Assembly (NCBI GenBank): GCA_048884965.1
Contig: JBHLQH010000030.1
Span: forward strand, 1 to 45,899
Length of the DNA stretch: 45,899 bases
Origin: Candidatus Thorarchaeota archaeon
GTDB lineage: Archaea; Asgardarchaeota; Thorarchaeia; Thorarchaeales; Thorarchaeaceae
Direction: 5' to 3'
The notes beneath the pieces were generated by a model. That model ran no database searches, was not told where the DNA came from, and saw nothing but the letters and a program-made list of their open reading frames with translations. Below are positions 7,665 to 40,066 of this stretch, piece by piece (position 1 is the first letter of the stretch; each line of letters opens with the position of its first letter). The position numbers and the translations under genes were made by a program.

Positions 7665-8978
7665 TCACGGCGGTTTTTGAAGAATGAGTACCCATTCGCC
7701 ATGCATGCGTTCTTTTCTTGGGATCCTAATGAAATGGCGAATCAAACCTGAAAAAAAGCTCCGCTCAAGTTTAAATCCTATCTCATCACTTGATGCGATT
7801 TCAGCCAGTATCTTGTGTGACTCAACCAAGACGCCACGTATTAGATTACTCCCCACTGCCAAGCAGTAATGACCTCCAGGAACAAGAACACGATAGGTTT
7901 CTGCTAGTTGTGCTTTCATGTCTTCGAAGAATTTGTAGACTATGAAGGATCTTCGAGGGTCTAATTCAAAAATTCTCTCAAGTATTGAATCAAGAGTGTG
8001 GTAGTTAGATATCTGACGCGCTGAATACTCTTCTTTGTAGACGGTTTCAGTGCCGATATATTTTCGTTTCATCTCGGATAGAGGAGCGTCATTGATCAAG
8101 TCAAGCCAGTACATCTCCAATTGATGTGTCCGAGGATAGTCGACTGCATTGATGTAGGGAGGAGATGTGATAGCAAGATCCACTGACGTATCTTCCAATC
8201 GCGTGTCTATAGCTGAAGTCATGTATAGCTTTGGAGCGATCCAATCATTGTCCTCCACTATTTCTGATAGTTCCTTCATAGAGGCGATCTGAGACTTAAG
8301 GGCATCGAAGAACTTGGCAGTCGTATCCCCTACATTGATTCTCTTCACTTGATTTTTTCGAATCACCGTCCGCGTACAATGCGGGTCAGCATTTGACACA
8401 TCACGAATAATGGACGAGAATATTACATGCAAGAAGTCTACTACTCGCGAGTCATATAATTGACTGATTGCTGCTATTGATTCCTTTATGGCACCCAATT
8501 CCTGAAGAACGAAAGGTTTGAACCAGTTATCTCTATAATGAAATTCAGGAATCGATACACCATCATATTGGTGTCCTTCAATCTCCTGCATCTTTGTTTG
8601 AAGTGCTTGTCGTACTCTCTTGAGCAGTGATTGTTCAATTGGCGTGGTTTTTGTCCGTGTGATTAGATTAGCCATTGGATCGATATCTATTCCTATTGCT
8701 TGTCGTTGCGCAAGGAGGGATTCAAGAACAACAGTTCCACTACCACACATGGGATCTAAGATGACCTTTCGTTTCGCAGAGTATTTCTGAATGAGGTAGC
8801 GAGGTAGTTCTGGAAAGAATTTCGCTGGAAACTTATGTATCCCGTGAGTCAGATATGATTGATCCCTACTTATGATTAGGATGCGTGCCTTATCAGGAAT
8901 GGTGGTATCAGGGGAGATATCCCCAAGGAATTCTTGATGGTATTCTATTGGAGGAGTATGATTGCCTTCGGATGTCAC
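7665..8978 (-). CDS. Orphan DNA amino-methyltransferase (N4-cytosine type, motif I before SPPY)
   Basis: 'THGIHKFPAKF', motif I 'LDPMCGSGT', motif IV 'TSPPY', 'RVLVPGG'. No adjacent restriction nuclease. Confidence 0.85.
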   Translation of the reverse strand: MTSEGNHTPPIEYHQEFLGDISPDTTIPDKARILIISRDQSYLTHGIHKFPAKFFPELPRYLIQKYSAKRKVILDPMCGSGTVVLESLLAQRQAIGIDIDPMANLITRTKTTPIEQSLLKRVRQALQTKMQEIEGHQYDGVSIPEFHYRDNWFKPFVLQELGAIKESIAAISQLYDSRVVDFLHVIFSSIIRDVSNADPHCTRTVIRKNQVKRINVGDTTAKFFDALKSQIASMKELSEIVEDNDWIAPKLYMTSAIDTRLEDTSVDLAITSPPYINAVDYPRTHQLEMYWLDLINDAPLSEMKRKYIGTETVYKEEYSARQISNYHTLDSILERIFELDPRRSFIVYKFFEDMKAQLAETYRVLVPGGHYCLAVGSNLIRGVLVESHKILAEIASSDEIGFKLERSFFSGLIRHFIRIPRKERMHGEWVLILQKPP

Positions 8979-9131
8979 GATATATTCCCATCACATACTT
9001 GGTTGTACATATCTACGACCATGGAGAGTGCAATAGACAATAATAATATGGCGGCCAGTACTTCGGCATAAGACGAGTTAACTATGGTACATTCCCCCCA
9101 GTTTAAATATCACGGAAGCATTGTGTTAACC

Positions 9132-9279
9132 GTGCCTTAGGAGTTGAGATTGGTACTCAAAGGAAACGACTGGTTTCTGGTTATTGGAGGACCATTCATC
9201 GGAAAGGATGGTAGTCCGTGAATCAGAGCACGGATCTCACCTCTATCAACAAACAGTGTTGTAAGGTATCTTCGAAGAT
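9132..9279 (+). ncRNA. Candidate structured cis-regulatory RNA (multi-stem 5' leader)
   Basis: TTTAAATA at 9102-9109. Closing stem GTGCCTTA(9132-39)/TAAGGTAT(9262-69) encloses several hairpins. Confidence 0.5.
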
Positions 9280-9292
9280 CGGAGTGTAGAGA

Positions 9293-9622
9293 ATGGCTAA
9301 ATACAGCGAATTAAGCAAATGGCTTATCGTAATCGGTGGCATCCTTGGATTGCTCCTTGGAATCCTGACAGCTGCTGGTTTCGGATTTGGACTGATTGAT
9401 TTGGGTCTACTTGGGATATTGGGACCTTTGATTTATGGAATACTCCAAATCTTGGTATCCCTGATTGTCCTAGCTACAAGTGGAATTGTCAATATTCCAG
9501 CTCTCAAGTTCGAAAAGAACTTCGTTGTCTATCTCATACTGGGAATAGTAATGTGGGTAGTAAACTTAGAACTTGCAGGAATATTGGTCATAATCGGTGC
9601 AATCCTATTAATCCTGAAATAG
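9293..9622 (+). CDS. Small Gly-rich 4-TM membrane protein (paralog A)
   Basis: Four hydrophobic segments; shares 'SLI.LAT.GI..IP.L....N....LILG.......L.G...IIGA.L.L' with 11127-11504. Confidence 0.8.
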   Translation: MAKYSELSKWLIVIGGILGLLLGILTAAGFGFGLIDLGLLGILGPLIYGILQILVSLIVLATSGIVNIPALKFEKNFVVYLILGIVMWVVNLELAGILVIIGAILLILK

Positions 9623-9628
9623 AACTAG

Positions 9629-9683
9629 ACACTCATGCAGATGCTCTAAAGCCGCTGCATGAGTGTTAGATTCTTTCTTTTTG
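9629..9683 (+). terminator. Intrinsic terminator-like hairpin with T tract
   Basis: Perfect 12-bp inverted repeat ACACTCATGCAG/CTGCATGAGTGT followed by TTCTTTCTTTTT. Confidence 0.7.
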
Positions 9684-9694
9684 AAGTCTAGAAA

Positions 9695-11071
9695 CTATCG
9701 ACTTTCTTCAGAGATTGCCCTATCGAATCTCTGCATGGCTTCATCAATATCGTCATTAGTGATGATATAGCTAGGTGTGAAACGGATGACATTCTGACCA
9801 GCGCCAAGCATCCAGAGCTTCTGTTTCTGAACGGCATTCTTCACAATGCGATCACGCAATGTCTTCGCCTTCTCTCGACTGGCTTTGTCCTTTACGAACT
9901 CGATACCAATCATTAAACCAAGACCTCTAACATCACCGATGACCTCATGTTTATCCTTGAGCTCCTCAAGTTGCTTCATCATATAGGCCCCTTTCTCAGT
10001 GTTGCTCTTGAGAAAGCCCTGATCTTCTATGTGCTTCAGAATCCAGAGAGATAGCAGTGCCATCTTTGGTTCGGCTGAGAAAGTTTCAGAATGACGGGAT
10101 GCACCAGTATACATCGGTGCGGGACCAATAGAAGCTCCCATTGGATATCCTCCGCCCAGAGCTTTTGCCATTGAGATGTAGTCAGGAACTACGCCATGAT
10201 GCTCGATAGCGCACCACTTTCCGGTACGCCCCATTCCTGCCTGAACCTCATCTGAATGGAAGAATGCTCCGTTGTCCTTGGCAATCTTGTATATGCCTTG
10301 AACAACATCAGATGGTGGTACGATGAGTCCACCTTCACCAGCCAAAGGTTCCATAACAACAGCTGCAATGTCATTGCCTTCAACCTGAAGTGCATACTCT
10401 AGAGTTTCCAATACATGATTCTTGTAATCATCATCGGTCATCCCCTTCGGTTTTCTGTACATATATGGATACGGCACACGAATAACGTCTACTCCCTGCG
10501 GGAAGGTGTTCTTATGACGGAAGTTGGTCGAAGTCAATGAAAGAGCGTATCCAGTTCGTCCATGGAAAGCTGGTCTGAATCCAACGAATCTACGTTTGTT
10601 TGTCAAATCCATTGCAGACTTCATACAACCCTCAACGGCGCGACCGCCAGAAGTTGTAAAAACGACTCGTTTCCTGTGACTTCCGGGAGTTATTGCTGCA
10701 AGCTTCTCTGCAAGAAGCGTCTGGGGGATGGCATCAAAGTCCATTCCAGGCAACTCAAGGACGACATCGCTAATTCGTTCCTCGAAATCGTGCTGTGGTT
10801 TGTATCTGAGACCAAATGCTCTAACAGCAACGCCCCCGGTAAGATCCAAGTACTCTGTACCTTCAATATCGTAAAGTCTGACTCCCTCTCCTCTCGTGTG
10901 GTCAAGACAGCCATAGATATCACGATCTTGTGTAGTGAGAGCCAAAGCGTCAGTTGCTCTATTAATCCAATATTTGTTGGTCATGTTCTTTGGAGTAAGA
11001 TCAAAACCAAGTTCTCGTAGAATTTGATAGTGCTTTTCGTCCATGCTATTCACAGTCCCATGGAAAGGCAT
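9695..11071 (-). CDS. Class III PLP-dependent aminotransferase (GABA/acetylornithine aminotransferase-like)
   Basis: 'DIEGTEYLDLTGG', 'AFHGRT', 'EPLAGEGG', 'DEVQAGMGRTG', PLP lysine in 'MAKALGGG', 'DVRGLGLMIGIEFV'. Confidence 0.93.
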   Translation of the reverse strand: MPFHGTVNSMDEKHYQILRELGFDLTPKNMTNKYWINRATDALALTTQDRDIYGCLDHTRGEGVRLYDIEGTEYLDLTGGVAVRAFGLRYKPQHDFEERISDVVLELPGMDFDAIPQTLLAEKLAAITPGSHRKRVVFTTSGGRAVEGCMKSAMDLTNKRRFVGFRPAFHGRTGYALSLTSTNFRHKNTFPQGVDVIRVPYPYMYRKPKGMTDDDYKNHVLETLEYALQVEGNDIAAVVMEPLAGEGGLIVPPSDVVQGIYKIAKDNGAFFHSDEVQAGMGRTGKWCAIEHHGVVPDYISMAKALGGGYPMGASIGPAPMYTGASRHSETFSAEPKMALLSLWILKHIEDQGFLKSNTEKGAYMMKQLEELKDKHEVIGDVRGLGLMIGIEFVKDKASREKAKTLRDRIVKNAVQKQKLWMLGAGQNVIRFTPSYIITNDDIDEAMQRFDRAISEESR

Positions 11072-39988: not shown

Positions 39989-40066
39989 TGGCGGGACCGC
40001 CCGGATTCGAACCGGGGAGAACCAACTCCGGAGGCTGGCGCCTTATCCATGCTAGACTACGGCCCC
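39989..40066 (-). tRNA. tRNA-Arg(CCG), intronless; CCA encoded
   Basis: GGGGCCGTAGTCTAGCATGGATAAGGCGCCAGCCT-CCG-GAGTTGGTTCTCCCCGGTTCGAATCCGGGCGGTCCCGCCA; TTTAAA box about 25 nt upstream. Confidence 0.97.

Follow-up and report, generated by a model that had tools for sequence, protein, structure and literature searches.

An unusually stable and well-defined RNA fold in the predicted leader of a conserved membrane-protein gene from a Thorarchaeota archaeon

Introduction

Upstream of a gene for a small membrane protein of a Candidatus Thorarchaeota archaeon lies an intergenic gap of 314 nt, in which a sequence-only reading had recognized a riboswitch-like leader of no known class. This locus raises the question of whether the gap encodes a conserved ligand-sensing RNA, a structured leader of another kind, or a fold without function. 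A real new riboswitch class would matter, and to our knowledge post-transcriptional control in Asgard archaea is almost unexplored. Here we report a computational analysis of this leader within the window, the whole stretch of 45,899 nucleotides, which belongs to contig C30 of a 4.09-Mb MAG.

Results

Genomic context and the downstream protein

The gap separates a DNA methyltransferase (methylase) gene from the gene for a 109-aa protein, which is followed by a convergent aminotransferase gene (Table 1). Two paralogs of the 109-aa protein sit past the aminotransferase gene. The four TM segments of the protein are those described in the sequence-only reading, and searches against Pfam and NCBIfam gave zero matches. 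In the Atlas, the protein falls mostly with Asgard-lineage clusters by sequence features, and near DUF6114-type small membrane proteins by predicted fold. Orthologs of the gene are found in 67 of the 85 family genomes, and the named homologs are mostly labeled Thorarchaeota, the closest sharing 91% and 78% protein identity. Scans of metagenomes and genome contigs returned distant loci only, as partial matches of at most 65% identity. In three congeners, the gene keeps both the methylase neighbor and the promoter block described below. At the loci L016, L025 and L027, a 124-aa paralog stands in tandem about 25 nt 5′ of the ATG of the ortholog, which there is probably operonic with the paralog and devoid of a leader of its own.

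Table 1. Coordinates of the features at the locus, numbered from the first letter of the window
Feature	Position	Strand	Description
N6/N4-type DNA methyltransferase (methylase) gene	7665-8978	-	Pfam PF01555; divergent to leader
Second TATA-like box	about 9037-9048	-	Faces methylase gene; left edge of 47-bp block
Conserved 47-bp block	9052-9098		Between two divergent TATA-like boxes
TATA box TTTAAATA	9102-9109	+	Perfect TTTAWATA match
Closed multi-stem RNA domain	9132-9269	+	138 nt, five helices; MFE and centroid agree
P1	9132-39/9262-69	+	GTGCCTTA / TAAGGTAT
P2, sequence-only reading	9140-50/9234-44	+	GGAGTTGAGAT / ATCTCACCTCT
P2, MFE	9140-43/9241-44 plus 9145-51/9233-39	+
Possible uORF, 23 codons	9150-9221	+	TTG start, 6 nt after AGGAG 9139-43
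Inner hairpin, MFE	9163-67/9173-77	+
Inner hairpin	9191-97/9206-12	+	Extended by 9185-88/9215-18 and 9178-82/9221-25
3′ hairpin, MFE	9247-51/9257-61	+
Palindrome ATCTTCGAAGAT	9268-9279		Perfect 12-bp, core TTCGAA
Weak SD hairpin CUUCGA/UCGGAG	9270-9284	+	Overlaps palindrome 9268-79
SD GGAGTG (GGAG 9281-84) and ATG 9293	9281-9295	+
109-aa 4-TM protein gene	9293-9622	+	Downstream of leader; family-wide conservation
Hairpin and T-rich run	9630-9683		11-bp perfect stem 9630-40/9655-65, 14-nt loop
Class-III aminotransferase gene	9695-11071	-	Convergent on 109-aa ORF

Promoter block and predicted transcript

The TATA box proposed earlier is indeed present as TTTAAATA, and it is the sole good TATA match within 400 nt upstream. 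In L010, L012 and L013, a TATA-like box aligns with it (MAFFT). The box marks the right edge of the 47-bp block, and in a MAFFT alignment of four same-genus loci no other intergenic sequence is conserved. This block is unique within the genome, matches the congeneric genome G006 with 91% identity over 35 nt (E 1.6e-7), and lies 25 nt upstream of the structured domain. Judged from its sequence, it is a candidate for a shared operator/BRE region.

From the position of the TATA box, the TSS is predicted at about 9130-9134. Helix P1 starts at 9132, 23 nt past the end of the TATA box (9109), so that the 5′ end of the predicted RNA would be base-paired. Inspection of 9270-9292 revealed no T-run, and the segment is too short to hold another promoter ahead of the ORF; because no T-run follows the domain on its 3′ side, the leader should be co-transcribed with the ORF. 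At the other end of the ORF, the region 9540-9679 has a local z of -3.31, and its hairpin with a T-rich run is likely a bidirectional terminator common to both convergent genes, even though a scan for bacterial-type terminators made no call at 9630-9683. The transcript would thus likely run from about 9132 to about 9685, with the ORF preceded by a leader of 161 nt and followed by a short 3′ tail.

The predicted fold

All stems and hairpins put forward in the sequence-only reading (hairpins at 9162-78, 9191-9212, 9215-34 and 9247-61) have the expected sequences at their positions, as do the palindrome, the GGAG of the SD and the ATG. The alternative TTGAG/CTCAA at 9144-60 is also present, as a mutually exclusive local pairing. 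Folding with RNAfold supported a leader of about 160 nt, almost fully paired and strand-specific, between the TATA box and the SD of the membrane-protein gene. The MFE fold contains 50 pairs, seven of them G-U. It keeps P1, P2 and the hairpins at 9163-77, 9191-9212 and 9247-61, but in place of the one at 9215-34 it lengthens the stem of the 9191-9212 hairpin. The exact structure drawn earlier reaches -40.0 kcal/mol, versus -49.6 kcal/mol for the MFE structure. The DNA methyltransferase gene starts about 290 bp away from the 12-bp palindrome ATCTTCGAAGAT, which is not kept in the orthologous leaders.

Comparison with shuffled sequences and natural upstream regions

On the plus strand, 9132-9272 folds at -49.1 kcal/mol (z -3.63), and none of 300 shuffles folds as well. 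The fold is also sharply defined: the MFE structure makes up 13.5% of the ensemble, where the shuffles have a median of 0.75%, the ensemble diversity is 4.5 against a shuffle median of 31.5, and neither value was matched by any of the 300 shuffles. The longer segment 9130-9295 reaches -54.1 kcal/mol (z -3.51, 0 of 200 shuffles as good, RNAfold), versus -38.6 kcal/mol (z -1.74) for its reverse strand; the weaker fold of the reverse strand is in keeping with the 50 predicted pairs, seven of which are G-U. A folding energy no better than that of shuffled sequences had been raised beforehand as a possible objection, and the leader beats all of them.

As a natural control, we used every upstream region of the host genome that contains no long ORF (1165 in total), cut at the distance from its start codon that applies to the leader. 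Among them, the leader ranks fifth by raw MFE, second after regression on G+C, and first by ensemble definition, whereas the background, computed for 170 regions, has a mean z of -0.30 (sd 1.06). These ranks have to be read together with a selection step, since the sequence-only reading had chosen, from roughly 40 intergenic regions, the one that looked best. Because of this selection, a chance origin of the fold statistics can be called no more than unlikely.

Among the other outlier upstream folds of the host genome, only one of nine matches a known RNA in Rfam, a tRNA; for this reason, the outlier tail does not calibrate the leader. Extreme MFE values or well-defined folds, with no Rfam match at E≤0.01, were also observed at C15:14522-14687(-), C5:149938-150103(+), C8:127814-127979(-), C40:4215-4380(+) and C31:32249-32414(+). 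Further structured leaders or ncRNAs may be among these regions.

Search for homologs of the RNA

An Rfam scan of the whole window at gathering thresholds returned a tRNA at 39992-40066 only. Relaxing the cutoff to E≤10 over 8900-9700 added two chance matches, of 13-15 bits versus thresholds of 60-85. The leader thus matches no known RNA family, and the sequence-only reading had likewise placed it in no known riboswitch class. BLASTN of 9100-9300 found nothing in 40 relatives and, at E≤10, nothing elsewhere in the host genome. We then built a covariance model, R1, from the single sequence and its 50-bp MFE structure. Over seven genus genomes (the host and six congeners) this model found the leader itself only, in a single copy, and it gave no match over 40 orthologous loci, nor over the 11 closest with the filters off. 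Past the TATA box, same-genus leaders were unalignable by MAFFT, blastn-short and Smith-Waterman with shuffles, and shared the SD alone; two of 21 leader pairs came to a p of about 0.05, no more than expected by chance. These comparisons span a deep genus, with about 60% protein identity for the 109-aa gene, so that neutral spacer is saturated.

The conserved, riboswitch-like element suggested by the sequence-only reading was not borne out, as neither BLAST, the covariance model nor pairwise alignment detected any similarity in same-genus or family orthologs. Orthologous leaders showed neither conservation nor, in the alignable g4 set described below, covariation above shuffles, an outcome that the sequence-only reading had named as counting against its own proposal; the adjacent promoter block, by contrast, is conserved. 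A ligand-binding core should be no less conserved than this neighboring block. The riboswitch reading is not supported.

Other types of element were also considered. A MITE or another element with terminal inverted repeats was ruled out by the single copy of the sequence (BLASTN at E≤10 and covariance model). Neither the boxes nor the architecture of H/ACA or C/D sRNAs fit the leader, by eye or in Rfam.

Leaders of orthologs and paralogs

Orthologs with a recognizable TATA box have long leaders, the box lying at -70 to -226. Cutting these leaders by a fixed TATA+27 rule yielded 19 orthologous leaders, with the window excluded. Several of them carry a closed domain of 39-165 nt that starts within the first 3-7 nt, and these domains are unrelated to one another in sequence and size. 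The first domain reaches p≤0.05 in four of the 19 (21%), versus 9% of 96 control leaders from the host genome; its median p is 0.12 versus 0.32, and the mean z of the 19 leaders is -1.08 versus -0.30 for the 170 upstream regions. However, the orthologs are not independent, with five of the 19 leaders coming from one genus (g4). The recurrence of 5′ closed domains is modest and, being non-significant after allowing for relatedness, suggestive at most. A 5′ structure that recurs while its sequence is free to change fits selection for a stable 5′ structure, not for a specific aptamer.

In the sister genus g4 (L015:1296-1503, L067, L070, L071, L076 and L068), the leader is about 200 nt long and alignable, with 72% identity. 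It folds into a long-range irregular hairpin of about 165 nt, with z down to -3.6 in two species. The g4 alignment displays no significant covariation: 89.7% of cells are paired versus 88.7% in column shuffles, and 56 of 500 shuffles matched its covariation score. That the structure might be a trait common to the paralogs was rejected, as the region upstream of the paralog operon in the window is unstructured (z -0.08).

The SD hairpin, the test for switching and the uORF

The SD follows the end of the domain after about 12 nt and is paired in a weak hairpin that contributes about -4.5 kcal/mol. In the full-length fold, the probability of being unpaired is 0.01-0.15 at 9280-84 and at least 0.77 at 9285-93, so that the AUG is open. 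A GGAGTGTAG-type SD is the sole element of the leader in common with the orthologs. We also considered a three-part switch consisting of an SD mimic, an anti-SD mimic and the SD, which was not favored in constrained folding: once the 5′ arm is blocked, the CCUCU-bearing 3′ arm of P2 pairs with an internal GGAGG, not with the SD. In these models, no expression platform is evident, nor is there any terminator-like T-run. An amine or PLP as ligand, an idea that had its sole basis in the convergent neighboring gene, is not supported.

Within the domain, the peptide of the possible uORF contains WFLVIGG, which resembles KWLIVIGG near the N-terminus of the main protein. The uORF region can be aligned, in frame and in collinear order, with the genuine start region of one ortholog, and a tblastn search gave an E of 0.017, in a tiny database. 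In tests for a gene-start relic, p was 0.016-0.09 by DNA alignment and 0.063 by an HMM of the family N-terminus, and the signal is not significant. With its AGGAG and the TTG after it, the 5′ arm of P2 resembles the start of a gene, and the frame 9150-9221 is a hint of a decayed partial duplication or else a product of chance.

Discussion

The present analysis enables us to propose, tentatively, that the gap encodes a species-specific structured 5′ leader, which would tune the stability or the translation of the mRNA for the conserved four-TM protein. Transcription would probably start 2-3 nt before P1, and the first 138 nt would then fold into a very stable closed domain in which the 5′ end of the transcript is paired. 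About 12 nt later, the SD would lie in its weak hairpin, leaving the AUG free. Such a domain may act generically, shielding the 5′ end from 5′-end-dependent decay and/or fixing a moderate rate of translation, and would sense no ligand. This proposal is consistent with a fold that is exceptional against both shuffles and the 1165 upstream regions and much stronger on the plus strand, with the predicted pairing of the 5′ end and the hairpin plus T-run 3′ of the ORF, with the weak occlusion of the SD, and with a single copy that has no conserved core. It also agrees with the long leaders of the orthologs, several of which open with an unrelated closed domain. Furthermore, the host encodes three beta-CASP nucleases, one of them aCPSF2-sized, as candidate 5′-3′ nucleases; aCPSF2 is a 5′-3′ exoribonuclease in Sulfolobus, and in bacteria 5′-terminal stem-loops counteract decay (PMC3792030). 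On the other hand, no archaeal demonstration of protection by a 5′ stem-loop was found in the literature searched, and a 138-nt domain of five helices far exceeds the needs of a stabilizer. The enrichment among orthologs is modest and non-independent, g4 shows no covariation above shuffles, and the paralog operon in the window has no comparable upstream structure.

A strong rival, which we consider somewhat less likely than this proposal, is that the fold has no function. Its stability would then have arisen fortuitously while the leader evolved fast and drifted neutrally, and a decayed partial copy of the SD, start and first codons of the gene itself may have seeded it. It would account for a singleton that has no homolog in any genome or locus searched, and for same-genus leaders that are as unalignable as neutral spacer. 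Moreover, the best of about 40 regions was picked, some region must top the genome, and a single one of the nine other outliers matched a known RNA. The AGGAG-N6-TTG motif followed by WFLVIGG hints at a relic start, but this signal is non-significant (p 0.063). The best of 40 regions would be expected at a rank of about 29, whereas the leader ranks first or second among the 1165; nor does drift readily explain an MFE frequency and an ensemble diversity that 300 shuffles left unmatched, or a plus strand that folds far better than the minus strand. An orphan sensor, namely a lineage-restricted riboswitch or protein-binding leader that switches translation of the membrane protein, appears improbable. 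The multi-branched, well-defined and aptamer-sized domain stands directly 5′ of the SD hairpin, matches no known class and allows mutually exclusive local pairings, all of which such a sensor would display. However, neither sequence nor architecture is conserved, even beside a 91%-identical promoter block, there is one copy per genome, and blocking the 5′ arm leaves the CCUCU off the SD. In addition, archaea use the known riboswitch classes sparingly, mainly those for TPP and fluoride, and these classes are conserved across phyla (PMC5473149). Slightly more improbable still is a lineage-restricted Asgard sensor RNA that controls the four-TM protein while analogous, non-homologous leaders do the same in sister species.

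The domain might also be a discrete stable sRNA of about 138 nt, either transcribed separately under a promoter of its own or cut out of the 5′ UTR, with its ends paired by P1. The very well-defined fold would suit such an RNA, as would P1, which joins the predicted first and last nucleotides as in many stable ncRNAs. We give this possibility little weight, given that 9270-9292 has no oligo-T terminator and no space for a second promoter before the ORF, and that neither a homolog, a second copy nor an Rfam match, sRNA classes included, was found. Control by the uORF is very improbable: ribosomes translating 9150-9221 would unfold the domain and would be coupled to initiation at 9293 or disturb it. 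An SD-like AGGAG indeed lies 6 nt 5′ of the TTG, and the frame stays open to within 12 nt of the P2 3′ arm. However, the SD and start of the uORF are buried in P2, the uORFs of orthologous leaders, compared by eye, vary in length and sequence or are absent, and 160 nt can be expected to contain an ORF of such a length by chance.

Taken together, the leader is probably an unclassified orphan structured 5′ leader and founds no new riboswitch family. A new RNA class needs conservation, of which none was seen; thus, one orphan element in one MAG defines no class. If functional, the leader would be a concrete, testable Asgard example of a long structured 5′ UTR. Were structure truly kept through the turnover of sequence, it would point to bacteria-like 5′-end-dependent mRNA decay or to tuning of translation.

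Compared with known systems, the leader resembles the TPP (RF00059) and fluoride/crcB (RF01734) riboswitches in having an aptamer-sized, multi-helix 5′ UTR domain directly before the SD of a membrane-protein gene. Unlike them, it has no Rfam match (E≤10), no conserved core in orthologs and no switching platform in silico. RNA thermometers such as ROSE and fourU occlude the SD in a hairpin, and the GGAG of the leader likewise takes part in a weak hairpin (about -4.5 kcal/mol); unlike in thermometers, this hairpin is set apart from the large domain, bears no family signature and is not kept in orthologs. In the mRNAs of type I toxins, for instance hok and tisB, a long leader rich in structure and in long-range pairs precedes the coding region of a small hydrophobic protein, which is the arrangement predicted here. 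Yet the protein in question has 109 residues and four TM segments, has paralogs, and is encoded by a syntenic core gene that occurs in 67 of the 85 family genomes; nor is a gene for an antisense RNA apparent. A further comparison is offered by 5′-terminal stabilizer stem-loops, known from the E. coli ompA 5′ UTR and from leader hairpins of Bacillus. The leader differs from these in being archaeal, in its 138-nt, five-helix fold in place of a simple hairpin, and in a 5′ end that is predicted. It is nonetheless reminiscent of them, as the mRNA of a membrane protein has a long leader with a predicted paired 5′ end and a more open SD downstream, and as the sequence is free to vary while a stable 5′ structure stays.
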